From Sphagnum compactum (taxonomy: Eukaryota): a stretch of 64,000 bases of DNA. A program made the translations under genes and the position numbers. The stretch is taken from positions 16,420,213-16,484,212 of the forward strand of contig OZ234493.1 in the NCBI GenBank assembly GCA_965153455.1, written 5' to 3'. The notes under the pieces were generated by a model. That model was not told the origin of the DNA. It was given only the letters and a program-made list of their open reading frames with translations, and did no database searches. This document shows, one piece after another, positions 13,152 through 45,700 of the stretch (positions within the stretch are counted from its first letter, which is position 1; each line of letters starts with the position of its first letter).

Positions 13152-16096
13152 ATGGGTCACTCGCATCATTATTCTCATGAAGCTGGCTTTCGTGTACGTT
13201 GCTCCTGCAAGCGAGCGACGGCCGTTGTGTGTGGGAGTAACGTCTTGGTGGTGCTGTACATGCTGCATTCCTTGCTACTCCCTCTGTATCTTACCCCTTC
13301 TTCCCATTCCTCCATCGTCCTCATCCGCCGTAACGGTTTGTGTTCTTTTCCCTCCCTTTTTTTTTCTCCATCCTCTTGTCTTTGGGGGCTTACAGTCTCA
13401 AAACCCTAATAGTTTCCCCTTAGTGATATGCAATCCATTTGATTCTCTCTTCCTCCTCCATGGTGACAGAAGATCGGTTTCATGATGATCTTTCCATGGA
13501 GAAGATCGCCGCCCTAGAGGGGAACTTGCACGTTATTTCCAGGAGACCAACCGAAGGATCTGTGAACAAACCCTAAAACTGTGCCCACATACCAAAGATC
13601 TGAAAAACTGACAGGAAGGTTGCACCACACTGGGATTGACAACAGCAAATTGGAGCTTTCTTGAGTGGTTTAGTTGAATTTCAGAGGTCATCCTTTGTGG
13701 TGTCAAAGGCATGACAATCCAAACTATGCTTTGATAATGGCTGTGACTTCTCTCCATCAGTGGAGTTTATGAGTTTGAGTGATGCAAGGGGCAGTTGAAT
13801 AATTCAGGCATGGGAGAGATTGCAATTTCATGGAAGATGGGGGATTGCAGGTACTTTGCAGCCAACAGTAATGAAATACACTCAAGCACAAATGAATCGC
13901 ATGAAGGAGGCGAATAAGGCACGGCAGGCTGCTCAGCCTCTCAAGCTGATCAAATTAGTGAGCATTTGCATCCTTTTTGAAGATTTGGTTTGTTGTGTGT
14001 ATTGCGTAATTGGTTTTTTTGCTCATGTTTTGCATCTCTCCTTTAAACTCAGGAGTGCTAACCAGTTTGCTTGGCTGGATGGGAAAAGGTAAAGGAGCTC
14101 CAACAAGAATCAGGAAGGGTGGCAGAGGACAGTCGCACATTGAATGCAGCTCATCAGAATGCAGCAGCAGCAGAGCTAGCCTCTCGTTTGAAAGCAAAGC
14201 TGTACAACCCAAACAATCAGCAAGGTCTGAGGCACAAATCTAGACGTCCCAAGACACTACCTTTCCAAGTTCGAAAACTCCATATCAATTGGGTTGATCT
14301 GCAATAATATGCCTGATCTCTTATCGTTATTAGATCCTTAAACCTATTGAGTCCTGAAGACTGAGTTTCCAAGTGTTTGCAGGATTAGACAAATGGAGGA
14401 GACAAAGGCTTAAATTGATCAAAAAAAGAGAAGAAGCTGTGCTGGCAACTGCACAAGAGTCAGGTCAAGAAAAAGGTGCAGAAAGATCATTATACATTTT
14501 TGTTTGTGCAACTTCAGGTTAATGCACATAACAAATCAATTTCTTTGTTTCTTTAAATCAAATGCACAGTGTGTCTGTTATTGGCAAGCACACCACCTTT
14601 TGCTGGGTTTTCTTTAAATGTAATGTGGCACTAGTTGAGAAATTTGCTCATCCCCTGAATTGGGTTTGCATCAGCAGAAGAGGTACCATTTGCTGAGGAA
14701 TTGGCAATTGTTGAAGCTTCAAGTCTGTTAGTTGAAGAGGAAGGGACTGGTCTGCTTCCAAGTGGAGCTGAGATAGGTAACCATGATACTGCCCTACAAT
14801 AATTTGTATCAGACCATCTGTCCTCCCATCATTTTATATGCTGCTAACCTCAAAGACAGGGTTTCTGTTTGAGACTGGAAAACCCTGCAGGCTATTAGGG
14901 TAATGTCTAACACTTCACATTTGATTGACACACAAGTGTAGGGTTTTAGATTGTCCACTGCCTACAAGTTTGAGTTTCCAGCAGCCTGGTTGCAGTTCAT
15001 TTGAGATTAAGAGTCATTGGATACAGATTACATCATCAGTCTGGTCAAGTTTTACACCATTTGATATCATTCCATGTGTCCATTGGAACGATTCTGTGCA
15101 TGCATTGGTGAGGGGTTGGAATTTGTGTGGAGTGATGTCATGACAACATAGACCAGCTGCTTTTGAATATGAAGCACAACTCCACAAGAATGTGATCTTG
15201 ACATATAAACCCTGATCTCCTAGATTTCTTCACTGCTTTAAAATCCTCCCTTAAGTAGATTCTCAATGTGGATGAGAAACTTGAGGCATTTAAATCCATG
15301 GTCTACTGCCTTTGTTCATGTGCATGAGTGCAGAAGATGGAATAATACCAGGGAGACCCCTGCCAGAAGAATGTCGTGCGGAGGCTCATACAGACTATGA
15401 TGGGGCAGCAGTGCGCTGGGGTCTGACATATCATGTTGAGAGTGCTGCAGACTGCTGTCAGGCATGTCTGGACCATGCACGTAGTGCTGAAGGAGATGGC
15501 AAAAAGTGCAATGTGTGGGTGTACTGCCCTTCTGAAGACGGCTGTTATTCTCCTGACATCTATGAGCACAAGCACCAAGAGTGTTGGTTGAAACAGGTCA
15601 GTTTTGCTATTCAGGATTGTCATGCATTCAATTGAAAGGTGCTTTGAAACTAAACGTTATCTCTGGTCTTCTCGTTTTTTCCTTTTTGTAAACCCTGCCT
15701 GCGAGTTTAAGCATAGGTACTTCACCCAAGAAGAATAAGCAGCAGCTGTGAGCATACTATCCTGTTGCTTGCTGTTTGTTGTAGCCATGATCATGAGATT
15801 GAGTTTTGCTGCATTTCAACTTTCAATACTCCTCCTTGACCCATCTTCTCAAGCAATTTGCAGAGCTCTAAGTTTCAAGTTCAGTGTGTTAGATTGTACT
15901 GAATATGTCTTGCGCTGCTCTACTTGATGCATCCTTGGGGAACCAAATGCACTTTCCTAAATGCTTGTGTTGTTGATGATGGCAGGCAGATGAGCCGAAG
16001 CTTAACTTCAAGGGGCGATATGATGAGGAATATCGAAATCAACATCCTATCGCCCCTGTCATTGTTCCCTGGGTTTCAGGGGTCATAAGGTTGTAA
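13152..16096 (+). CDS. Type II membrane-anchored protein with C-terminal Apple/PAN-like cysteine-rich domain; exons approx. 13152-13335, 13851-13957, 14089-14224, 14383-~14475, ~14675-14776, ~15334-15596, 15986-16096
   Basis: N-terminal hydrophobic anchor (CSCKRATAVVCGSNVLVVLYMLHSLL) and a coiled middle. C-terminus reads ECRAEAHTDYDGAAVRWGLTYHVESAADCCQAC...CNVWVYCPSEDGCYSPDIYEHKHQECWLKQ|ADEPKLNFKG...VPWVSGVI, a conserved plant family. Junctions are GT-AG; the middle exon limits are less certain. Confidence 0.87.
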
Positions 16097-26905: not shown

Positions 26906-29653
26906 ATGGAAGGTCGTAGCCGGTAAGTGATTCTCTTCCCTTCCCCCCCCCTTCTCTCTCTCTTTTCTGGTCCCTTATTGCGGTTCACGATTGTGCGATG
27001 TTTTGTTGCTTAGATCTGTGACTTCATTTTCTTCTCTGTGTGTCGAGAGGATTGATTAGCAGCGAGCGATGTTTTTTTCTGTTTGGATCTGTGACTTCCT
27101 TTCTTCTCTGTGTCGAAACGATTACTAGCATAGGATGTTTGATGTATCGATCCAGCGATGTTGCTGCTGCCTTAATGATGAAGAGTAGTAGTAAGCAATA
27201 GGATCTGCAGAAGGTAAATTAGAGGTGAGCAAGAGTGATTGGAGTTTGGAAAGTATGGCAAGTGCAGGGTGTTATGCAAGTTCTTCATGCATGGAGCGTG
27301 TTTGAAAGGAGAAGATTGCATGTTCTCTCATAGCTGGAGTGACCAGGCTAGCCAGGTAAGTAAAGAGCATCGTCTCTCCTAACAAGCTTCATGCATCAAA
27401 GTGTTTCCTTTCAGGAAATTATGCTCACAGCTTTCAATTTGCGCATGGCTTTGGTTTTCTCCTCAATTAGAACATTGTTTTTTCAGTGGTCCTGTCATGT
27501 GTGTGTACTGATTGTTGTATGATCATGTGCAGGTATGCACATTTTATCAGCGTGGCCTTTGTTCTTATGGCAGTCATTGCAGGTATGAGCATGTAAAACT
27601 CTCCCATCCAGTGTCAAATAATCCTCTCCTTCCCCTACCAAGACCTTCAGTGGTAGCTTTTAACTCATCTCCAGACACAAGTAGGGCAGAAGAGAGCTCA
27701 AGCAATACCCATACACAAAGTGCCTGGCAACTCACAGAAGGCAAGGCTAATCTGGGTCCCCGATTTCTGGAAGAAGATGATGAAAAGGATGTTGAAGAGA
27801 TTGAAATGCCAACGTCCAACGACCCGAGTGAGATGCCAATCTGCGCGTTTGCAGCTGCTGGCATATGCCCTCGGGGTGATAACTGCCCGCAGATTCATGG
27901 TGAATTGTGCCCAACTTGTGGGAAGCATTGTTTGCATCCATTTCGTCCATCAGAACGTGATAACCACAGCCAGCAGTGTGAACGTAACCAGAAGAAGCTT
28001 GAGGCACTTCGCAAGAGCCAAGAAATCGAATGCAGTGTCTGTCTGGAGCGGGTGCTTTCAAAGCCAACAGTTGCTGAGCGGAAATTTGGATTAATGTCAG
28101 GCTGTGATCATCCATTTTGTGTTGGCTGTATACGGGGTTGGCGGAGTGGTTCTCATGCACCAGGGATGGACATTGATACTGTTGTGCGGGCCTGCCCAGT
28201 TTGTCGAGTAGCTTCACATTTTATAGTCCCAAGTGTTGTTTGGTACTCAAGTTCGGAAGAAAAGGAGGATATAATCAACGGCTATAAGAACAAGCTCAGG
28301 TGTGTGCATGAGAACCTAAAGCTGTTTGTTCTATTTGATGTCCCTATCACGACTTGAGGTTTTATTACCCATCTGACATACTACTTGACAGATGGTAACC
28401 TGATACGTAATTGCCCTTTAAGGTCATACTCACCCTATAATTGATCAGTCTAATGACCAGCCAGCTGGTTGGATTTTGACTTGGAAGATTGGTGCAGCCA
28501 CTCTGGTAGGCTTGTCATGTGGCTGCACCCAGCGGTGACCATCAGTCTTTTATTTGGTTGGGTGCCTGATTTGTCAACATTTGTGTATATAGATTGTGCT
28601 CTGATTTGTCATAGGTGGGTGGTGTGTTGCACATTAAATGACTGGTGTATGCCCTCCTTTTCCATCCCTTGAACAATTCAAGCAATCAAGGAGATCAAGT
28701 GGACCCAAAAGTCCATATTGGTCTCTAGGTGTTTGCATTCTTATGTGAGAACATATAGAATGCTTTACCTTAGCTCCTGATGCACACACATGTAAAAATA
28801 CATGCACAATGTTTTTGTAATTGAATGTTAGGGGTGTATTTGTGTGTGCAGTGATATTGATTGCAAGTATTTTGACTATGGAAATGGAACCTGTCCTTTT
28901 GGAACTAGCTGCTTCTATAAGGTAAGGAAACCAGCTTTTTTTGTTCTCTGTCCTCTGTGCAACTCAAATTGTTATGTCAGAGTGTAGCTGACCCCCATGT
29001 GACCATGTTGTCTTAACACCATTTGACAACTCCAGTTGGCATCAGATGGTCCTGCTCAGGATTTTGCATATTTAGCTGGTTTCATATGTTGAATTTCCTT
29101 CATGTGCAGCATATGTTTAGAGATGGAAGTAGGGAGGAGGTGAAGTTACGTCACCTTGGTGCTGCTGATGGGAACACTGTCATTGCCAAAAATGTTCGGT
29201 AAGCTTTTCAGGCTCCCCTTGCTGAAAGGTTTTCTCCTTTTTTTTTGTCCGATCCTTAGGAGCTTTGTGGTTTTCATGAAATTCTTAACATCTTTGGTCA
29301 GGATGTAAGATGACCAAAGATGCATACATCATTTTAAGCTCAAGACTACCCTGCTGTGATTTTTTGTGGCTTCCTGACTGCAATCGTCCATGTTCTTTGA
29401 TATCAGACCTTAAGTGTGCTGCAGTTAGGTCAAGGGAGAAATTATTCTGGCAGATAAAGGGTTTGAGTGTTGCAACTTCTGAAAGCTTCTGCCCTCTCTA
29501 ATGTCGGAGAGGATTTCATTCTATTCTGCATTTTGAAGGTTATGTGCCACTTGTTGTAATGGTTTGCAGTTTTTGAATCCAATGTTGTTTTGATTTTGTC
29601 TTCATATGGACAGGTTATCAGACTTCTTGGACAGATTGGATATTGCCAGGTGA
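26906..29653 (+). CDS. MKRN: E3 ubiquitin-protein ligase makorin (C3H zinc fingers + RING); exons 26906-26922, 27268-27355, 27533-28299, 28852-28921, 29110-29198, 29614-29653
   Basis: C3H fingers [40 protein letters not shown] and [19 protein letters not shown]. Makorin Cys-His motif, [12 protein letters not shown]...[21 protein letters not shown]...CPVCR, and final finger [23 protein letters not shown]. Phase-consistent GT-AG junctions. Confidence 0.95.
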
Positions 29654-32458: not shown

Positions 32459-33244
32459 ATGTAATACATATGATTAGTTATTGTAAAAATTTGAGACAAT
32501 GGTTACAACATGGATTCCTTTCAAATCTATGAAGAATATGACTATCATTCCGAGTTTTAGTAATCTTCAAACCCATAATTAGAAAACTATTAATTTCCAA
32601 GAAAATTGTTTCTAATGTCATGAAATTTAATGTAAATTTCCATGCAATACAATCTATTCAAATAGTTGCACATTACAAACATTTCAAAGTATAACCTTTT
32701 TTTAAAAACTTTTTTACAAATATGTATGTGACCTTGGATGCAAGTAAGAATGGATACTTACAAAACCAATGAATAGGTGCCATTTTCCCAAGGCGAGATG
32801 TATTTAGTTATATTATTATCCACAACATATATTCCCCCCCCCCCCCCCCCCCCCCCAAATGTGGTGTGTTTATGTTTGTCGCATTGAAGATTCCATTAAA
32901 GTTGCTTTGATCAATTGCATCAATAATTTTGAATAAATGATATTTCAAATTCCATGCGCCAAAACATGAACTATTGTAGCATTGAAATGGAAGTACTCTA
33001 AATCCCATAAAAATTCTAAAAGATCTATGAAAAGTAATTGTGATAAGCGAATGATTAAGAAGGCCAAATCCTAGTAACAACAATTGTGTTGAATGACAAC
33101 ATATATTATAAAAAATTGTGAAACTTTGAGTTTATGGACCTATTGGAATACCTTTCCACATTTACAAAAACGATAAATTAATTAAATGGACAAATGTTAC
33201 ATTAAATATACATGTTGAATTTAATCATATAATGAATATACAAA

Positions 33245-36200
33245 TCACATCCTTTTGGAAGTGGAGCCAAATCTTTTCCATAGTGCGTTGAAAGGTTCTT
33301 GGATTAATGTGGCAATATATTGCAATCCTTTCTTTTTGTTCAATCCTTCCAAACGCTGCAAAACTTCTTGCATTTTCGGTCTTTGATTTGGGTCTTCCTG
33401 TAAGAAACAAATGTCATAAAAGTTAGATGTTTATTATATAATTGTTATACATTACAATCAAACCATGGCAAAATGCTCCAATAAATAGGACCATATGTTC
33501 ATGTCTCAATTTTCATAACATAATTTGAACATATATCCTTCAAAAAGGAGTGTAGAAACCAACTTATATTTGTATTCAACAACACAATTTTATGTTATTT
33601 GAAACTAGGATACTCAAATTGACTTTACATATCAATCATGCAAATGGTTTAAGGAATTCCAAATGAAATTGAATGTACCATTTGCATGTGCAAACCTTCT
33701 TAAGAAGTTTTACATTCATTAATCAATCCAATTTAACTTATTTCACTAGTAGAAAAAGCGTGGTTTAGTCACAAACAACATTTGCCACTAAAAGTTAACT
33801 TAGTAGCAAATGACAAATTAGGAACGACGCTAGTTGCAAACAACATATGAAATATTTGTTTTCATAGAATACACGTATGACAATTTTACACATGTATCCA
33901 AGGATGAGTTCTTGCGACTACACTTACAACTACAATGTACAGCAATATGTTCACACCTGGTAACCTAAGAATGTAACACATGGCATCATTTGAATTTTTT
34001 TCAACTATTCAATTAAAGCAATTTTATTGTGCCATGTGGTGGCTTAAGATTGAACGACGTGACAACTCAAAATTTATAATCATTTAAGGTTAATTTAAGG
34101 TTGGACCACTTATGATAGGCCAATTGGCACTTGAGCTAAGCCTAGGTTAGGCCACCTAACCTAAGTAAGTGCCTAATGTACCTAACCTGATTTCAAGGTA
34201 AACCATTTAAAATAGGCCATGTGGCACCTAGGCTATGCCTAGGCCACTTAGCCATTGTCTAGCTTAGGTAGGTAGGTACTTAGGTCTAGGTCTAAATTGT
34301 TACAACAAAATCCAATTTTATTTTAAATTTAACCTATTATGTGGAGCGTATGTGATTAGCTCCTCCCATATGGCAACTAAAAAAATTTAATGTGTTTACA
34401 CCAAATCAACCTATTTATATAGTTTGTAAATTTGAAATGGAAGACAAACAATATGGGATAAAATTTTATCTATAGCTCTTAGTCGCATAGTTCTAACCTA
34501 GTTGCAACTATTCTTTAAGATATACTATTACATAGCCTACCTACTAGGTAGCATAAGTTTTTACTAGGTAATAATTTAGATAATATTTATTGGAAGTCAA
34601 AATTTAAATAGTTTTAAAATAATTATTTATTTAAAATGCCTATTTAGATAGCCTCTAAATAAATATTTATAATTAAATAGGCCTATTAAGTAGCTAGTGG
34701 ATACGTAGGTATGTATGTAGGTACCTAATAAATAGCTAGGTAGCTAGGTAGATAAATGGTACATAGGTAGGTGTACATATTAGGTAGGTAGGGTATATGC
34801 ACCTAGTAAATAAATAGGTAGGTAGTAGGTAGGTATTTAGTAATTACGTAGGTAGGGATGTAAGTGGTATGTACATAAATACATAATAGGTAGGTATATG
34901 GTACATATGTGGGTACCTAGTAATTAAGTAGGTAGGTAGGTAATTAGGTAGGTAAGCATTTAGTAGGTAGGTATATACATATAGATAAATATGTATTATT
35001 AAATAATCTATATGTGTAGTTACTAGGTAACATATGTACCTTATGTACTTATAATGTAACTATTTTGGTTGCATGTGCAACTAAATGTATATATGATGTT
35101 GTAAAAATAAAAAAACATCATGAAAAATCAACCTATTGAAAAGATGAAATAGGTCCTAATTGCAACCTAGTTGAAAAGAAGACCAAAATCCATCCAAATT
35201 TGAAAATTAGTTTCAAAGGCAACCATTCATAGTTATAAGCGACATTTAGTCGCACATAGTCACACAAGGAATGGTTGCAAATGACAAGATTTCTATTAGT
35301 GTTTCATATTGTTTCAAATATTACATTGAATCCATGATTTTAGGTTTTTGAAATTTGCTTGACCACAAATTGAATGATAAAATAAAAGATTTGGCACAAG
35401 ATTTACCTTGATGCATTGAAGGGAAATTTGCAAAAATGATTTGGCTTCATTTCGATCAAACCCAACAATTGAATTATTAATTGCAACATCAAAAATTTGT
35501 TGAAATCCATCTTCTTCCTCTTGAACCTCTTGTACCCATTGGATAAAGTGGCGAATGTGAATTTCATTTCCATCTAAAGTCAATGGTGATCCATTCACAA
35601 GTCGAATCAACAATACTCCAAAGCTATACACATCACTTTTTGTTGATGCTTGATTTGAATGAATTTCTGGTGCCATATATCCGCTTGTTCCTGGCCTAGA
35701 AGTTGAAGCTAATGCAATCTGAATTTAAAATTTCAAAAATATCAATAATTTCAATGGGCGTTGCATGCATTGTCAAAATTCATAAAACCCATACCCAATA
35801 TGGTATAATACCAATAGGAAACTTGATTTTTTTTTAATCACAAAAGTTGCAATCCTTTTGTTATTACTTGTGCACACATAAAAAGAAATTTTGTAATATA
35901 AAATTTGTAATTTCATGAATTATTACATTAAGTGTTTTTCAAATATTCATTTTACATTGTGATTGTTTATCATATTTATTCCATGACCTATAATAATGAA
36001 AATATAAAATTATTAAATTGTGGCCCACAAGAGTGTTCAAATTTGCAAAGTTCATAATTGCACTAAAATATAATGCCCATGCATTTAATCAACAAAAAAA
36101 TAATGGTGGGGCACATACCACATTTTCATTCGTGCCATGTAAAATTTTTGCCAACCCAAAATCAGCCAATTTTGGGGTGTAATCCTTATCCAAAAGGATA

Positions 36201-38314
36201 TTTCCTGGTTTGATGTCAAGATGAACAATGGTTGGATCACATTTATGATGCAAATGTACCAATCCTCGAGCGACCCCTATAATGATGCATATTCGTTTGT
36301 CCCAATCCAAACGTTTATCTCCATCAAGCCATTTGTCAAGAGATGAATTTGAAATGTATTCATAGACCAACATGTGTTTTAAGCCTTTGATACAATAGCC
36401 CAAAAGATGAATCAAATTCATATGTCGAATTGATCCCAAGGTGTTCATTTCTGATACGAAAGATTTTTTTGCACCTTCATTATGTTCACCACTCCATTCC
36501 AAAACTTTAATCGCAATCGTAATGCCTTTCCAACAACTTTGATACACCTCACCATAGGCTCCTCTCCCCAAACTAGGTCCGAAATTCAATTCATCGTATG
36601 TAAAAGATCGAATACTCGAATTTAATGGCAACGATTCTATTATCGGTTGGTATTCATCGAACATCCATTTCAACCATTTTCGATCTTGTTCATCATTTGG
36701 TGTGAGATTATGAAGTTTATCGATCGCTTCCAATGCTGCTTGATATTTGTTTAAACTCCAATTCATGTGGGCATAAACTATTAAAGTGAATGCATTGTTT
36801 GGTTCAAGAACATGAGCCTTGTCAAGGTCCTCCAAGGCTCCTTGATAGTCATCCAGGTTCCTTTTAATAGCTCCACGATGTCGCAAAGTGAATGCGTTGT
36901 TTGGTTCAAGAACATGAGCCTTGTCAAGGTCCTCCAAGGCTCCTTTATAGTCATCCAACATCCTTTTGACCTCTCCACGAACACTCAAAGTCAATGCATT
37001 GTTTGGTTCAAGAACATGAGCCTTGTCAAGGTCCTCCAAGGCTCCTTGATAGTCATCCAACATCCTTTTGACATCTCCACGATGTCGCAAAGTGAATGCA
37101 TTGTTTGGTTCAAGAACATCAGCCTTGTCAAGGTCCTCCAAGGCTCCTTGATAGTCATCCAACAACCTTTTGACCTCTCCACGACTCCTCAAAGTGAATG
37201 CATCATTTGGTTCAAGAACATCAGCCTTGTCAAGGTCCTCCAAGGCTCCTTGATGGTCATGCAATATCCTTTTGACATCTCCACGAGCACTCAAAGTGAA
37301 TGCATTGTTTGGTTCAAGAACATGAGCCTTGTCAAGGTCCTCCAAGGCTCCTTGATAATCATGCAACATCCTTTTGACCTCTCCACGACTCTTCAAAGTG
37401 AATGCATTGTTTGGTTCAAGAACATGAGCCTTGTCAAGGTCCTCCAAGGTTCCTTGATAGTCATGCAACATCCTTTTGACCTCTCCACGAACACTCAAAG
37501 TGAATGCATTGTTTGGTTCAAGAACATGAGCCTTGTCAAGGTCCTCCAAGGCTCCTTGATAGTCATGCAACATCCTTTTGACCTCTCCACGACTCCTCAA
37601 AGTGAATGCATCATTTGGTTCAAGAACATCAACCCTGTCAAGGTCCTCCAAGGCTCCTTGATAGTCATGCAACATCCTTTTGACCTCTCCACGAACACTC
37701 AAAGTGAATGCATCGTTTGGTTCAAGAACATTAGCCTTGTCAAGGTCCTCCAAGGCTCCTTGATAGTCATCCAACATCCTTTTGACCTCTCCACGAGTGC
37801 TCAAAGTGAATGCATCATTTGGTTCAAGAACATGAACCTTGTCAAAGTCCTCCAAGGTTCCTTTATAGTCATCCAACATCGTTTTGACCTGTCCACGAAT
37901 CCTCAAAGTGAATGCATTGTTTGGTTCAAGAACATCAGCCTTGTCAAGGTCCTCCAAGGCTCCTTGATAGTCATCCAACTTCCTTTTGACCTCTCCACGA
38001 TGTCGCAAAGTGAATGCATCGTTTGGTTCAAGAACATTAGCCTTGTCAAGGTCCTCCAAGGCTCCTTGATAGTCATCCAACATCATTTTGACAATTCCAC
38101 GATTCCTCAAAGTGAATGCATCGTTTGGTTGAAGAACATCAGCCTTGTCAAGATCCTCCAAGGCTCCTTGATAGTCATCCAACATCCTTTTGACAATTCC
38201 ACGAATCCTCAAAGTGAATGCATCGTTTGGTTGAAGAACATCAGCCTTGTCAAGGTCCTCCAAGGCTCTTTGATAATCATCCAACATCCTTTTGACCTTT
38301 TCACGAACATTCAA
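33245..38314 (-). CDS. TPR-array / RLK-Pelle-type non-RD Ser/Thr kinase fusion; exons ~38314 (first ATG 38287)-36119, 35718-35407, 33397-33245; 5' end uncertain
   Basis: 15 near-identical 34-aa TPR units plus one divergent capping unit, then a kinase with LGRGAYGEVY, IAIK, HLDIKPGNILLD, ADFGLAK, GTSGYMAPE, KSDVYSFGVLL and CIK|EDPNQRPKM. Both introns are phase-0 GT-AG. About 877 aa from ATG 38287 with no internal stop. Confidence 0.88.
33744..35301. mobile_element. Non-autonomous CACTA (En/Spm) element in the last intron of the TPR-kinase gene
   Basis: Starts CACTAGTAGAAA and ends TTTCTATTAGTG, with 3-bp TSD TTT on both sides. Subterminal tagtcgca/tagttgca repeats, internal (TAGG)n-like low complexity and no ORF. 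Confidence 0.88.
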
Positions 38315-38356
38315 AGTGAATGCATTGTTTGGTTGAAGAACATTAGCCTTGTCAAA
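36683..38356 (-). repeat. Homogeneous coding tandem array, 102-bp unit, about 16 units (TPR)
   Basis: Plus-strand unit caaagtgaatgcat.gtttggttcaagaacat.agccttgtcaaggtcctccaaggctccttgatagtcat.caacatccttttgacctctccacga repeats at an exact 102-bp period. Confidence 0.97.
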
Positions 38357-38953
38357 GGTTGAAGAATATCAACCTTGTCAATGTTCTCCAAAGCTCCTTG
38401 ATAGTCATTTGACATCCCTTGTACATTTTCATGAGTCTTCAAAGGGATTGCCTTGTTTTGTTCAAGAACATCACCCTTGTCAGACTCCTCCAAAGCTCCT
38501 TGATAATCATCCAACATTCTTTTGACCTTTGCACGAATTCACAAAGTGAATGCATCGTTTGGTTCAAGAACATGAACCTTGTTAAGGTCCTTGAAAACTC
38601 TTTCATAATTGTTTAACACATGTTTGACATATTAATAAAAATCCCTAAAATATGTGCAATGCTTGGTTTAATAACATCATGTTTGTCAAAGTCTTCAAAA
38701 GTTTTTTCATCTTCCTTGAAGACCTTTTTTTTCATGTGCACAAGTTCTTAAACTTAATGCACTTTTGGTTCATTGAAGATAAACCTTGTCAAGGTCTTTC
38801 AAGGCTACTTGATAATCTTTCAACACCTTTTTTTCATATTTTCCACGTGTGTTATTTAATTGATTCCATTGTTTAATTCATGAATACTAGCCTTGTGAAC
38901 GTCTTCCATGGTTTTTTCATAAGCATTTCATTTGTCAAGAACATGAAATAATG

Positions 38954-38955: not shown

Positions 38956-38996
<41 letters not shown>
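38956..38996. repeat. (TA)n microsatellite
   Basis: About 20 uninterrupted TA units. Confidence 0.95.
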
Positions 38997-38998
<2 letters not shown>

Positions 38999-41900
38999 TT
39001 GAACATGAAACAAAATAATTGCGATAGAAAGTTTTTTTTGGGGATATTCCACCAACCTATGTCACCTTACTTTCATATAGATTTGAAATGTAATCATTAC
39101 TTACACAATGATTAGCATACATAATTCTTATCATTGATGAGTATTCCACTTAGTTTAAAGAATGTGATTTGGTAATAAACATTTCATTACGTTATGCAAT
39201 TTGTTCAATTCAATAAATGTAGATAAAAGATGTGCGTCCAAATCAATATATATTTTTCCATTTCTTGATGGAGCTAAGGTGGCAAGCATCCCTAGGCAAA
39301 ATTTGATTTAACTAACAACATTATGTCAAGGAACTCTAAAAATTTGGAACCAATAGGCATAGGTGTAACAACCCTTTCACCCTAAACATATTTAAGAATC
39401 ACTTTTAAGCGAAGAATTTCCAAAAAAAGGAATTTGCAACAAAATAACATGTATGTAAAAACTTGTGTTGCGTTTTGGTGATTTTTGCCCAAAAAATTGA
39501 TTGATCATTATTTTGTATCATGTTTTACTATTGAAATTTCTCTTCCCATTCCCTTGTCATGCAACTTGAATGTTTACAAAATTGATTTGGTCGAAACATA
39601 ATGGACAAATGATAAATTACAAAGAACAAATTATTGAATCATTTAAAACATGCATTCATGTAGTTAGTTTTCATGTTGATATTCCATTTCAATGTGATTT
39701 GAATGACAAACTTGATCATTGTTGAACAATGTTGTTGCACAACTCCATCACGTGCATATTTACATGCATATGCACAAACCTTGGCAAACATTACTATTGT
39801 AGTACTCTATTTATGTGAAATCCATAACTTTTAATTGTTGCAAAACTATTTCGAGTAGCTAGCTAATGCGAGTCCCAATTTTGTTCAAATTAAACTCTTT
39901 AATATAATCCCGTTTGAAACCTAAAAATATCATATTCATGTTTTAGTTATTCACTCATTCCATTCATCACAACCTTCATACCTTTCACACCTTGATTAAG
40001 AACACAAACTTAACTTTGACGTTGCAAGACATATTGAGTTCAAGACGATAGAAGTTTGTGTGTGAAACACATACCTACAAGTTTTGAGAAATTGCAAAAG
40101 ATGTGATGTTCAAATGACCTTGATAGTTTTTGTTGTCTTTTAGCGTTGGTTGCTAGCCCAATCAAATGCATGTGAACACTATGGCAATCAAGAAAAACAC
40201 CAAGTTAACCCACCTTAATAGAAAATCATGGTAGATGAGTATTTGTGCAAATTTGAATCATTATACAATCGTTACTTGAGGTCAAATATTCATAACATTA
40301 CTAATGCGTTCAAGGACATGGAACCAAAGTTTTGGTGTTTGAGACCTACCAAGTTTGACATAAAAGACGTGATGATATGTGAAAAGCATTTGCACGTGGT
40401 GATTGGATGATGAACACTTCTCTTGTTGTTGCGTTGAGCCACAAAGCCGTATAAACATATGTGAAGAGATTGATGGCAATAGTGCAACAAGGGAACCAAC
40501 CTTGATAAAAGTTTGTAGCAAACTGGGGGATGCAAATTTGGGCCAAGGGAGAATTAGTCCATTGGATTCCTTGCACTTATGCCGGACTCGTGAACATCTT
40601 GGAAGGTGGTTCTGATTAGAGGTTGAGAGAAAGGATCCAAGTGGTCCTTCCAGGATGGTGCAAACCGTGTGCCATAATTTAGGCTGGTTAAAGTTTTCTG
40701 TGCTACCCGCTCAGAACTTTACTCCGGAATATGTTATTGCAGCTGGATGCTTTTCTGTCTTTTCTGTTGTCGTCTTGTGCTTTCACATTGCTCAAGATTG
40801 GAAGTCTTTAATAAAGCGACGCAGTCTGTGCGTGAGTACTAGACCTGCAACTTCCTGTGATCACTGATTTTTCTGGCTATAAGATAATGGATGCAAGTGG
40901 TCATTGATGGATTGCACCGTCCATGTGTCAGCAAAGAAAAGTGAGGCCGGTTAGCAATCCTCAGTCGGAACTTTCCTCTTGTATAGAGAATATCAACTCG
41001 TTGCTTTGTGTAGCTTTTTCTCCCCCTCATTACCTGCCGGGAAACATTGTTCATAATTTCATTTACCATAAAGTCATGGCACGTGCCCCATGTTGGTGCT
41101 TGGCCCCAAACTTGAGCATGTGTAAGTTTTAGACTTGAAAATTTTCCTGTGACCGGTGCTTTTCAGGCATTACAGAATTGATGGATTTGGTCATTGTTTG
41201 ATAATGCACAACCTGAGTCAGCAGATATAACTGGGGTTGTTAGAGCTGGAACTAGTGAAATTGTCATGGCTGAAATTCGCCATTTTGCTATGAATGAAAG
41301 TCCCAAGCAACATGGTCGAGGGAACTTTTTGAAAAAATCCTTAAAAAATTGTCACATTTTCAGGAAGAAGAGAGCTATGAAATAGCCAAAACAAACTAAA
41401 TTGAAGGATTTGGGCAGATTTCTAACTTTCTTCTTTTGAAATCCCCATATTTAGTTAATAGGTTCTATTGGTTTGCCAACATGTAATAAGATTGCCATAA
41501 TTTTTACTTCTTTATTTGTCTTGTAATCAGACCTGACTAAATCCTCTTGTGGCTGATTGCCTGTTTTGATGCGACATGAGAAAATTGAAAAAAAGGAACA
41601 GCGGCTGGACCCTCTGAATTGATCGTTTGTCAGCAAAGAAGACTTATTAGTGGAGGTAGGCCTGAGGGCTCAAAATGCAATCTAAATTTTCAGAGCGCCA
41701 CCTGGCATCATTTGAATGAGGCCTCTTAGTGACCATATTAAGCCCAAAAAATGTTAAATCTGAACTCAGACACCCTGATTTAGTCTAACCATGGGATATT
41801 TGTAATGTTTAGAAATAATTTAAATGGACTAGCTTGGGTTCACCCAAAGGCTCTCAAGTCACTGTGCCCTTGTTGGCTGATTGAATATCATTGAAACTAC

Positions 41901-42783: not shown

Positions 42784-45700
42784 GTCAGTGTATTTCTGTC
42801 ATCCTCAGCTGGTCTGTTTTGCTTTCATATGTTTGCTTTGGGGTTAGTCCCCTGATTTGTTTTGGGAAAGCCTTCTGACATGACTTTGTGCTCTGCAGAC
42901 GGACTTGATAGCTGCAGAGTTCAATGGAGGGCCACTGGATGGCGAATACTATCAGCATTCCTCCTTCACACCTCTTGAAGCAGGATTGGTACAGGAGGGA
43001 ACAAATTTTCTTATGGAAGAATACACATTTAGACTTTCTGTTCTCTATTTTAAGGACTTGGGTTAGTTAGATAAAAGTGTAGGTGACTTGCTGCCTTCTC
43101 GAATTGAAGGTCTTGTGCAAGATGGGTCAATAAAAGACGGCGTTAGGCCTACCTCCACTCCAGGTCCCAGAAGGGACCAACTAGTTGGCCCATTGAAGTG
43201 CTCCCCAAGTAAAGTGGCCCATTTGAGAACTTGCCTTTGACATACATACAATATACTAAGGCAACAGAAACGGTTTGGGTGAGCTGTTGAATCTTCATCA
43301 CATGCTCACTGGTCATGCCTGTAGTGGAGTTGGGCATACAATAGAGAAATCGGTAAATTCAGGGGGAGTTTCACAGGGTGTGTCATACCCTATTAATTTT
43401 TTCGCCTTGAGTTCCAGCGGTCCATAAAGTCCCCTGACTGTGGTCGGTTTTGGAAAAAGACGGGCTGGGAAGAGGGGTTGCCCACGTGGGTGCGCATTTA
43501 ACTGGCTTAAAATGGGGTGGACAGTCTTGGGGGTGGACAGTCCAAGACTGGGTTGAATAGGTGGACAGTCTAAGAAGTTGAAAATATCAACTTTTGGATT
43601 GGGGAGGGGAGGCGAGGGCGTTGGGGGAGGCATTTTTGGGATTTGGACGGTGGGTGAGGGGATTTGGGTGCGGTTTTTTCTTTCCTGAAGGATGCGTGGG
43701 TTAGGGGTTTAGGAGGGTCATTTTATTTTTATTTTAAGTTTTTTTCTTGGAGGGGGGGAGGGGGTGGGGTTCTAGGGGTCTTAATAGGTGGAGGTGGGAA
43801 AGGATCATTTCTAAAAGTAGCACTATTTGCATTCAGAAACAGAGGTCAAGAGTGTGGTATTCAGATTGGTTGATATCTAGCATCAACCTGCACCAAAAGA
43901 ACTTTCTTTTTTGAGCATCAATGTTCCTCACAATCATGTTGCAACTTAATGTCGTTGCTCTCAATATTTGACATCCGCTGTTGATTTTCTGGTGTTGATT
44001 TAAGGCTTTCATGTTGTTAAGCTCCTGAGTCTCAAATTTGAAATGCACCTCATCAAAGTCTTCCTTCACAAAGGTCCCTTTTGCAGTGTCTTGCTCACAG
44101 ACCATTGCTATTAACTTGCTTTAGATCTCATTGAGCTCATAATTCTTTATATCTGAAGATTTTTGCATAACTAACATGTCTTCTGGCAATGCCATGATTT
44201 TTATATTAATTATGCTTCTCATGATATTGAATTGTTTAGTCGATTGTACAACTTCAATGTTTGCATTTGTGATAGCCTTTTTCTTCATGTCCACCATCAA
44301 GATTTCTATTAGATGTGAAATATGGGTGTCCAAGGTTTCTATATTGCAATGAAGAGCTATGACCTTCCACAACTAAGCTTCATTTTGCTGTTGGAGTACA
44401 CTGCAGCTACATTGGGATATCTTTGCACTGCTTCGTTTTTGATATCAAAGTGGTCTTTCCATGACTGTGGGAGTCCTTCATGGTCACCACTTGTGCCAGT
44501 CAAACTTTAACATCCATGGATGTGGCACCTCCCAACCGGGGGTTCGGTGAAGCATACCAAGGATCCCAAGTACTATGGAAATCCTACCAAATAATCATTT
44601 CCCACACTGTTTGACACTTTCTTAATGGCACAATACATAGAGATTGAATCATTCAGGCTGCAAGACTTTTCAGATTACCAGCTTATAAAAAGCATATTGC
44701 TTTAGACTGTGGGTGGAAAATTTCGACCCATCTATTAGCAGATTGGGACAACCCATGTCTGTGTGTAAAGATTTGGAGGAGAAGATTTCTGAAGGGATCT
44801 GTCATGAGAAGAAGCTCTTGCAGTTTGACATAAGAGTAGTCAGAATGTGCTAGAATTTGGGATTCAACATATGCTGGAAAACCAAGGATAGGATTTTTCA
44901 AAATGTAGAATCATTTGAAAAATGACATAAATGGTATGCTGCAATCTCCCTTTATCCTCTCCCCTGAACAACTGCCTTTTCCTGCTTTGAGTTCCCAACT
45001 ATGCAAAAAAAACCTTATTTTCCTTGCAAGGTGTTGGAGGCAAAAATGGTAGACAGGGAAGATGCATTCAAGTCCCTTCCCCTCTTGCTCAAAAGAAAAG
45101 CCTTATTTTCTCTGCTAGGTCACAGATGCTAAAATGTACACATGGGAATTGCATTTTATTAGCATGGCCTTCTTCAAGAGCTTTCCCCTCTTCAGACATC
45201 ACACTTCGAAAAAATCTTTATTTTTCCTGAAAGGTGATCAAAACAAAAATGTACAAAAGGAAATTTCATTTTGTTCCCAGGGTCTTCACCAATTTTCCCC
45301 CGCTTCAGCTTCAATGCTGTGTAAAAACCCTTCCTTTCCCCTAAATGAAAAAAGAATAGGGAGTTTGCATTTCCCATTCAATTGCAAAGGGGATTCCTTG
45401 AGATTCTCAGATGTTCAAACAGAGGATCCCCCACAAGTTTCTTGTATTGGGTGACGCAGCACCCACACTGGTAGCATGGTAAGAACCCAAATTTTCATTT
45501 AAGTTGCTTCCGAATATTACAGGTGCACATGCTTAGGTTACAATAGGCTCTGTGAGATCAAATCTAAGATTTTTTGGGCTTAATACGGTCACTAATTGGC
45601 CTCGCTAAAAAAGGTGCAGGTATCAGTGGTAGGAGCTGGTTCACCCTGGCCGTGAGGTGTGTAAGATGAGGGCGGAGCCTGAGTCGCACTCACTGACCCT

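Follow-up and report, generated by a model that had tools for sequence, protein, structure and literature searches.

We describe a gene on the minus strand of a 64,000-nucleotide (nt) stretch of the peat moss Sphagnum compactum (GenBank assembly GCA_965153455.1, contig OZ234493.1, positions 16,420,213 to 16,484,212 of the forward strand; hereafter the window, with positions counted from its first letter), in which an array of 15 near-identical tetratricopeptide repeat (TPR) units precedes a kinase of the receptor-like kinase (RLK)/Pelle type. The array is probably the ligand-sensing domain of a soluble, cytoplasmic, lineage-specific TPR receptor-type kinase under diversifying selection. The evolutionary and structural parts of this reading are well supported; a receptor function, especially an immune role, is what we infer.

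The array occupies 36794–38323 and consists of 15 in-frame units of 102 nt (34 amino acids) inside a 759-codon open reading frame (ORF) at 36089–38368. Cutting the translation at each AFTL places unit 1 at 38323–38222 and unit 15 at 36895–36794. A degenerate 16th unit, which starts AFTL-IV and is retained as a cap in relatives, follows at 36793–36692. Tandem Repeats Finder (TRF) detects 15.4 copies at a period of 102 nt (91% matches), and Pfam recognizes the array as TPR_1 (2.9e-52) and TPR_2 (4.6e-54). TRF also lists a higher-order period of 306 nt, but its match level (87%) is lower than that at 102 nt, so there is no evidence for a three-unit superunit. A preliminary description of the array, made from the letters of the window and naming no strand, had placed it at 36785–38314. 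The array is indeed there, but measured against the unit boundaries above, both ends of that interval are off by 9 nt.

The differences among the units are confined largely to a few codons. Eleven of the 34 codons are identical in all 15 units, 15 of the 34 positions carry an invariant amino acid, and two units share on average 0.81 of their amino acids. At the nucleotide level, the mean pairwise identity is 0.905, rising to 0.945 when codons 5, 6, 9, and 13 are left out and falling to 0.61 inside those four, which bears out the earlier remark that most other codons are nearly invariant. Variation is concentrated at positions 5, 6, 9, and 13 and is less pronounced at 12, 15 (D/H), 28 (H/D/N), and 34 (N/D), while the basic residues R7 and K11 of the first helix (helix A), which adjoin the variable residues, are invariant. 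The residue pairs previously read at positions 5 and 6 (NV, RI, RN, RH, RI, ST, SV, RS, SV, KS, SA, RS, RH, SV, and RH) agree with our translation in all 15 units, as do the residues given for position 9 (K/I/E/Q/D/A) and for positions 12–13 (RM/MM/RK/TM/RI/RL/RN).

An even spread of variation, or CpG hypermutability alone, had been named at the outset as patterns that would speak against selection on a binding face, and neither is seen. Counting one substitution event for each extra nucleotide state in the 15 window units gives 42 minimal events in total, 19 of which fall in codons 5, 6, 9, and 13 against 4.9 expected (binomial P = 6e-8; P = 0.0011 in a simulation that chooses the best four codons post hoc). 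The sole consensus CpG sits in the invariant codon 7, and transversions outnumber transitions by 13:6 at the variable codons vs 8:15 in the rest of the unit, which together rule out CpG hypermutability as the cause. The proportion of non-synonymous differences (pN) at the four codons is 0.40, and the proportion of synonymous differences (pS) elsewhere is 0.058. The pS of the variable codons themselves is 0.34, on just 1.8 synonymous sites, because both AGG and CGA encode Arg and both AGC and AGT encode Ser at codon 5. Since this local pS is also high, a test of the ratio of non-synonymous to synonymous change (dN/dS) confined to the window is indecisive.

The family to which the gene belongs offers a much larger sample. 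A scan of metagenome contigs with the cap, the linker, and the N-lobe of the kinase as query yielded 153 related stretches, from which 80 loci were fetched (65–89% identity). Searched with a DNA profile of the 15 units, these 80 loci and the window together give 1567 unit matches, 1366 of them full and ungapped, in 79 sources; the longest in-frame runs comprise 50, 37, 37, and 33 units. The window is nuclear DNA, and at the protein level its best matches come from Sphagnum fallax, S. tenellum, S. magellanicum, and S. balticum. When the kinase region of the Sphagnum homologue P0002 (residues 262–604) is searched, all matches of at least 56% identity among the 120 listed are from Sphagnum (seven species) or are unnamed metagenome proteins; the next best among those listed are flowering-plant RLKs at 31–44% identity, and a protein of the moss Ceratodon matches at 42% identity and has no TPR. 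These sequence comparisons suggest a large and young gene family that appears to be restricted to Sphagnum. It is also apparently undescribed: literature searches found no published description of it, and the words 'TPR' and 'tetratricopeptide' are both absent from the Sphagnum genome paper (PMC9946827) as far as its main text goes. Many of the annotated models start at the Met of unit position 13 or in the wrong frame, and public annotation of the family is therefore poor. One partial model from S. balticum (P0030) combines leucine-rich repeats (LRRs) with a single TPR-like cap, the family linker, and the kinase, and is either a true LRR variant or an annotation fusion.

Selection was examined in two sets of units. 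In 43 non-redundant arrays of at least eight units, with the window excluded, the pooled pS is 0.18 and the pooled pN is 0.134, and pN relative to the global pS exceeds 1 only at positions 5 (2.04), 6 (2.19), 9 (1.87), 12 (1.91), 15 (1.57), and 13 (1.04). On a tree of 900 unique units, parsimony counts 1142 synonymous and 3351 non-synonymous changes, and dN relative to the global dS is 2.04 at position 5, 2.18 at 6, 1.81 at 9, 1.49 at 12, 1.23 at 15, and 1.19 at 28. Positions 5, 6, and 9 exceed their local dS too (P = 0.0012, 7e-6, and 2e-4, respectively), while 12, 15, and 28 exceed the global dS only. The structural positions 4, 11, 14, 21, 23, 26, and 33 have dN/dS values of 0.09–0.3 on the same tree. 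The preliminary description had predicted a ratio above 1 at positions 5, 6, 9, and 13; the prediction holds at 5, 6, and 9 by both tests and fails at 13 (0.72 by the global and 0.36 by the local test). These patterns argue that diversifying selection acts on a few helix A positions, namely 5, 6, and 9, with a weaker case for 12 and 15.

The repeat units are true TPRs by Pfam, by single-unit search, by the helices of a predicted model, and by Foldseek. A single-unit query matches TPR proteins only, with CTPR-rv4 at 6e-16, and the TPR register proposed earlier (G8, Y17, A20, A27, and P32) is borne out by the Pfam TPR_1/TPR_2 matches and by residue-by-residue alignment to consensus TPRs. We modeled the array with AlphaFold2 (AF2) from an 88-row alignment of eight-unit blocks. 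The best model has a mean predicted local distance difference test (pLDDT) score of 76.8 and places helices at residues 2–13 and 17–30 of each unit. An AF2 run on 16 units with no alignment was discarded (pLDDT 54, with one long helix per unit). The top Foldseek matches of the confident model, one of five, are the consensus-TPR superhelices of 8 and 16 repeats and the TPR domain of OGT, with TM scores of 0.73–0.85, which indicate an ordinary TPR superhelix as far as a predicted model can. In helix A, which spans residues 2–13 of the model, the entropy vectors of the residues sum to a resultant of 0.68, with the variable sites 5, 6, 9, 12, and 13 on one face, consistent with the claim that the variable residues share the binding face of this helix. 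According to Magliery and Regan (2005), positions 5, 6, 9, 12, and 13 lie on the concave ligand face of TPRs, and HOP uses positions 2, 5, 6, 9, 12, and 13 (PMC1261162).

The period of 34 residues and the adjacent variable pair recall the transcription activator-like effectors (TALEs), and the preliminary description had likened the 5/6 pair to a TALE-like di-residue code. A four-unit query (36794–37201) of the Protein Data Bank (PDB) did match TAL effectors at 7e-33 to 6e-18, in register with their 34-amino-acid repeats. However, no TAL effector is found among the 20 single-unit matches at E <= 10, among the Pfam matches, or among the best 50 Foldseek matches listed, and on these results we reject homology to TALEs. 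The presence of TALE matches for four units and their absence for one means that a weak similarity of equal period is multiplied by the repeats. This phmmer case shows how repeat periodicity inflates scores. The helices of the model, of 12 and 14 residues, likewise do not fit the TAL-effector repeat, in which a loop with the variable pair separates a short helix from a long one. Nor do the units belong to the pentatricopeptide repeat (PPR) proteins, whose repeats have 35 amino acids, since the period is exactly 102 nt (34 amino acids) and no PPR family occurs among the 23 Pfam matches.

A code could still have arisen by analogy, with each TPR unit reading one element of a linear polymer through its 5/6 pair, as TALE and PPR proteins do. 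Such a reader would account for the adjacency of the two most variable positions, whose mutual information (0.41 bits vs 0.15 when shuffled) is the highest of all pairs, for the recurrence of a few 5/6 pairs across loci, for the very long arrays of up to 50 units, and for the invariant basic R7 and K11 beside the variable residues; the in-register TALE alignment of the four-unit query also fits it. We nevertheless regard it as very unlikely. The 900 unique units carry 112 distinct 5/6 pairs in a broad distribution (the commonest are RS 119, RT 55, SV 55, RN 52, and RI 46), rather than a small alphabet. At least five positions vary per unit, 9, 12, and 15 being as variable as 5 and 6, and mutual information is raised for all pairs (0.06–0.38 for the others), as shared ancestry predicts, so that the value of the 5–6 pair is only moderately above the rest. 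The model has two equal helices per unit, which is not TALE geometry, and the single-unit, Pfam, and Foldseek results given above point the same way. The likening to TALE di-residues is thus not sustained. To our knowledge, no natural TPR uses a one-unit, one-element code. A related proposal, that the long arrays are programmable readers of an extended peptide or other chain threaded through a basic lumen, with positions 5, 6, 9, and 12 setting the specificity of each unit and reshuffling rewriting the target, strikes us as similarly improbable. If it were true, TPRs would have given rise to a natural, evolvable counterpart of TALE or PPR recognition that is coupled directly to a kinase.

The array is part of a transcribed three-exon gene that encodes, in order, the TPR array, the degenerate cap, a linker, and the kinase. 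Pfam finds TPR_1/TPR_2 and Pkinase in one ORF and the remainder of the kinase in a downstream frame. Beyond the array and cap, exon 1 continues on the minus strand through 36119–36691 with the linker and the kinase N-lobe as far as the catalytic loop (H-L-D) and DFG (Pkinase, 2.3e-29) and ends at a splice donor at 36119. Intron 1 (35719–36118, 400 nt, GT..AG) is removed in 34 reads of the polyA RNA library X24 and in one contig of X11, all of which join 35718 to 36119. Exon 2 (35406–35718) encodes the activation segment, the APE motif, and the C-lobe (Pkinase, 9.3e-10, profile positions 155–241; RNA depth 36–54). Intron 2 (33397–35405, 2009 nt, GT..AG) is supported by 31 X24 reads that join 33396 to 35406. 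Exon 3 (33245–33396, within an ORF at 33245–33430) encodes the end of the kinase, the C-terminal tail, and the stop codon; it matches the C-termini of homologues P0002 and P0011 and has an RNA depth of 23–25. The reads were placed over 33200–36800, from exon 3 to the end of unit 15. Depth is 23–78 over the three kinase-bearing exons and 0–7 over most of the intron sequence, reaching 17 in a bin beside exon 1. The first mates map to the plus strand, the orientation that a typical stranded library gives for minus-strand RNA. This strand fits minus-strand transcription, and we take the antisense plus-strand ORF at 36785–38362 (525 codons) to be a by-product of the stop-free repeats. About half of the polyA reads carry alternative bases (at 36258, 36326, 36365, 36408, and 36412) and join unit 15 to the cap differently (loose end at 36795), and therefore a close allele or paralogue is co-expressed. 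The library itself is an ordinary one, with no known challenge.

The 5′ end of the gene is less regular. Upstream of unit 1, a leader at 38324–38900 (minus strand) contains about five degenerate TPR-like units in other frames, recognized from ORFs, the unit profile, and the sequence, and a 1.3-kb leader region is 76–95% identical across many related loci. A stop codon (TGA, 38541–38539) lies at unit position 5 of one degenerate leader unit, and the ancestral start codon (ATG, 38517–38515) lies in the same unit. The stop, as TGA or TAG, is kept in all six leader-homologous alignment rows (L015, L003/L078, and L016/L019/L022, some of them copies of one locus), and in those relatives the frame opens right after it, at the position-13 Met of that unit, and reads into the array. 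Because the stop is conserved across paralogues, the leader is an old feature and not a product of recent decay. Peculiar to the window is a 26-nt segment in two tandem copies (38331–38381, minus strand, seen by TRF, in the sequence, and in the alignment), the extra copy being missing from all nine aligned relatives. It puts the leader units out of frame with unit 1, with the result that the first in-frame ATG of the long ORF becomes the Met at position 13 of unit 1 (38287–38285), the likely start in this copy; several homologue models also begin at a position-13 Met. The leader ATG of the window now opens a short frame that ends at 38313–38311. Use of the unit 1 ATG, poor translation, or an assembly error might each explain this copy. 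No Pfam family was found in the ORFs at 40282–40710 and 43313–43708 that could provide an upstream N-terminal domain, and the leader itself is made up entirely of degenerate units. An (AT)20 microsatellite at 38956–38996 also lies in the conserved leader region, upstream of the array. Elsewhere in the window, open frames on the plus strand encode CCCH zinc fingers and a RING finger (27512–28357) and a PAN domain (15294–15635), in the order listed, with no evident link to the TPR-kinase.

The glycine loop and the AIK, H-x-D, DFG, and APE motifs of the kinase are all readable in the window translation. The best solved matches to the kinase of the Sphagnum homologue P0009 are a lectin RLK, BAK1, BIK1, PBL2, SYMRK, BRI1, and IRAK4 (5e-45 to 4e-38), and, together with the plant RLK matches of P0002, they identify the domain by similarity as being of the RLK/Pelle (IRAK) type. 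With H-L-D in its catalytic loop, it lacks an Arg before the catalytic Asp and is thus a non-RD kinase. This is a family-wide property: the motif is present in 74 of the 81 sources, and the residue before the Asp is Leu in 72 and Phe in 2 of them. According to a review, the characterized plant non-RD receptor kinases all recognize conserved microbial signatures, a correlation and not a test (PMC3411088). We found neither a membrane segment nor a signal peptide in the protein; the highest mean hydropathy over 19 residues is 0.98 and lies inside the kinase, and the linker is hydrophilic. Pfam detects no NACHT or NB-ARC nucleotide-binding oligomerization (NOD) domain in the ORF, in the full-length homologues P0001 and P0009, or in two upstream minus-strand ORFs. 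In the segment from the linker to DFG, the median dN/dS is 0.35 (655 pairs from the 37 of 81 sources whose segment is intact by our search pattern), and by this measure the kinase is under purifying selection.

Comparison among loci points to a reshuffling of units. Three loci with 96–100% identical kinase flanks (L016, L019, and L022) have 13, 11, and 12 units, respectively, and the pairs L001 and L015, and L037 and L038, have near-identical kinase flanks (96–100%) and quite different strings of 5/6 pairs. Runs within arrays, such as RY RY RY and an alternating ES KI ES KI, are a pattern expected from local duplication, and the nearest relative of 10 of the 15 window units is in another locus, often with the same 5/6 pair. 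At L072 (5310–6524) and L065 (1936–2316), the frame of a member's last kinase exon continues into the TPR units of its neighbor, indicating head-to-tail tandem gene copies.

The same data bear on whether the array is a recently amplified repeat under relaxed constraint, perhaps in a pseudogene, its uneven variation being due to ancestry or mutation bias. Such neutral decay in a young expansion would be in keeping with the window pN/pS of 1.18 and the high pS of the variable codons, with the frameshifting 26-nt duplication upstream of unit 1 and the leader of degenerate units with its stop, with the in-frame stops in 76 of the 1349 units of other loci, and with a synonymous divergence that is much the same inside arrays (0.18) as from one family member to another (0.09–0.25). 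We consider it an unlikely account, because the same few positions vary in 43 independent arrays and on the 900-unit tree, while the structural positions are strongly conserved and frames stay open for up to 50 units. Moreover, the variable codons are dominated by transversions, with no part played by CpG; the kinase exons are transcribed and correctly spliced, and the kinase is constrained; and the leader with its stop is shared by paralogues.

Alternatively, the partner could come from the moss itself. In that case the array would be regulatory or scaffolding, either autoinhibitory or client-binding, and its groove would co-evolve with an expanded family of the moss's own proteins. There is precedent in the BSK proteins (receptor-like cytoplasmic kinase family RLCK-XII), in which an N-terminal kinase is followed by a short C-terminal TPR domain that regulates it. 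The best structural matches of our model, TPR superhelices of the OGT, SPY, and APC/C type, bind endogenous substrates, and the gene is expressed in an ordinary polyA library with no known challenge. The Sphagnum protein, however, is not a BSK: the order here is the reverse, with the TPR array before the kinase, and no BSK is present among the best 60 solved kinase matches listed. The size of the family, the differences in unit number, the tandem copies at L072 and L065, and the excess of dN over dS at specific sites are typical of recognition receptors (PMC4986451 and PMC3341825), and the kinases are non-RD in all 74 sources that show the motif. An endogenous partner is rather unlikely in our estimation.

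We thus favor a recognition receptor and envisage it working as follows. Arrays would grow, shrink, and exchange units by unequal recombination, a process suggested by the pattern of units. Selection would keep the structural residues and favor change at helix A positions 5, 6, and 9 (less clearly 12 and 15) that line the groove, so that the surface offered to a variable partner would differ from array to array. The partner would most plausibly be a microbial protein or peptide, or another non-self or rapidly evolving ligand, and its binding would alter the activity or the assembly of the kinase and thereby give rise to a phosphorylation signal. The protein would then function as a kinase-coupled counterpart of the repeat sensors of NOD-like receptors (NLRs).

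Several points weigh against this proposal. The immune or non-self role is suggested by analogy, and the ligand and the kinase activity are putative. The predicted placement of the variable sites in the concave groove comes from the homology of positions in the sequence; positions 28 (in helix B) and 15 (in the turn) vary, yet are not classical groove positions; and four of the five AF2 models are poor (pLDDT 31–35). The local-dS test also flags the structural positions 1, 3, 7, 8, 19, 24, 28, 29, and 30, and it is noisy because few synonymous changes occur at them. The window alone gives an overall pN/pS of about 1.2, and the variable codons give about the same value against their own pS. The non-variable columns are barely more alike within arrays (0.896) than between them (0.875), and this small difference, with the similar synonymous divergence noted above, means that ongoing exchange and a recent burst of duplication are not separable; a recent family expansion could mimic concerted evolution. 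The differences in unit number come from short-read metagenome assemblies, which can collapse repeats and in which alleles and paralogues are indistinguishable. Finally, the 26-nt duplication cuts the array of the window off from its ancestral start, and this copy may yield little protein or none.

Near-identical repeat sensors shaped by reshuffling and by selection on their binding face occur in fungal NLRs and in candidate receptors of brown algae; in plants they are rare. The present case is a large, expressed family in a land plant whose putative sensor is fused to a non-RD RLK/Pelle kinase with neither a NOD domain nor a membrane span. Should its role be in recognition, peat moss, a keystone plant with intimate fungal and cyanobacterial partners, would have a class of intracellular plant receptors that are neither NLRs nor membrane receptor kinases. 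The family would be natural material for engineering TPR binders as well.

In TAL effectors such as AvrBs3 and Hax3 of Xanthomonas, a two-helix unit of 34 residues is also repeated in near-identical tandem copies with few variable residues. The per-unit similarity to these repeats is not significant, however, and the helix geometry differs. The variable residues, too, are not the same in number or location: TALEs carry their repeat-variable pair in the loop between the helices, and Sphagnum positions 5 and 6 lie inside helix A. A better analogy is provided by the near-identical TPR, ankyrin (ANK), and WD repeats of fungal NLRs, in which positive selection acts on the concave face (Dyrka et al. 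2014, PMC4986451). As in Sphagnum, the fungal proteins (for example, Podospora anserina Pa_2_10340 and nwd/het-e) form a multigene family with tandem near-identical repeats, and positive selection is limited to a few positions, which map to the concave face of the fungal TPRs (PMC4986451) and are predicted to do so in Sphagnum. Their repeat number differs and units are shared between loci (PMC4986451), as the metagenome assemblies suggest for Sphagnum too. Unlike the fungal NLRs, the Sphagnum protein has no NACHT/NB-ARC domain and no N-terminal effector, its kinase being fused straight to the array, and the host is a plant. Among Viridiplantae repeats, Dyrka et al. (2014, PMC4986451) reported high internal conservation (HIC) in just 0.4%. 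HIC is defined by units more than 85% identical in amino acids over 100 residues or more (PMC4986451), and the Sphagnum arrays fall short of it, with 0.81 in the window and 0.62–0.80 in the 43 arrays; they do show the HIC hallmark of positive selection confined to a few positions of the presumed interaction surface (5, 6, and 9, all in helix A).

The candidate NB-ARC-TPR and LRR-ROCO receptors of the brown alga Ectocarpus are also lineage-specific, with repeated TPRs, reshuffling, some positive selection, and a proposed role in recognition (Zambounis et al. 2012, PMC3341825). Each Ectocarpus TPR, however, is a separate, shuffled exon of 42 amino acids, whereas the whole Sphagnum array of 34-amino-acid units is one exon, and Ectocarpus couples its TPRs to NB-ARC where Sphagnum couples them to a kinase (PMC3341825). 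The plant non-RD receptor kinases XA21, FLS2, and EFR (PMC3411088) likewise join a variable repeat sensor, a role that is putative in Sphagnum, to an RLK/Pelle kinase with no Arg before the catalytic Asp. Their sensor is an extracellular LRR domain, in contrast to the predicted cytoplasmic TPR superhelix of Sphagnum, which has no signal peptide or membrane span, and the residue before the Asp is Cys or Gly in that group vs Leu or Phe in Sphagnum. Fungi of the Glomeromycota (Diversispora epigaea and Gigaspora rosea; P0013, P0017, and P0035) also have proteins with a TPR array and a kinase, and their 34-amino-acid TPR subtype is similar. P0013 shares the Sphagnum domain order (TPRs at 27–746, kinase at 794–1048), with 28% identity over 99% of the query. 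The fungal repeats, however, are ordinary and diverged, with an identity at a lag of 34 residues of 0.28–0.38 vs 0.83 in Sphagnum P0001.

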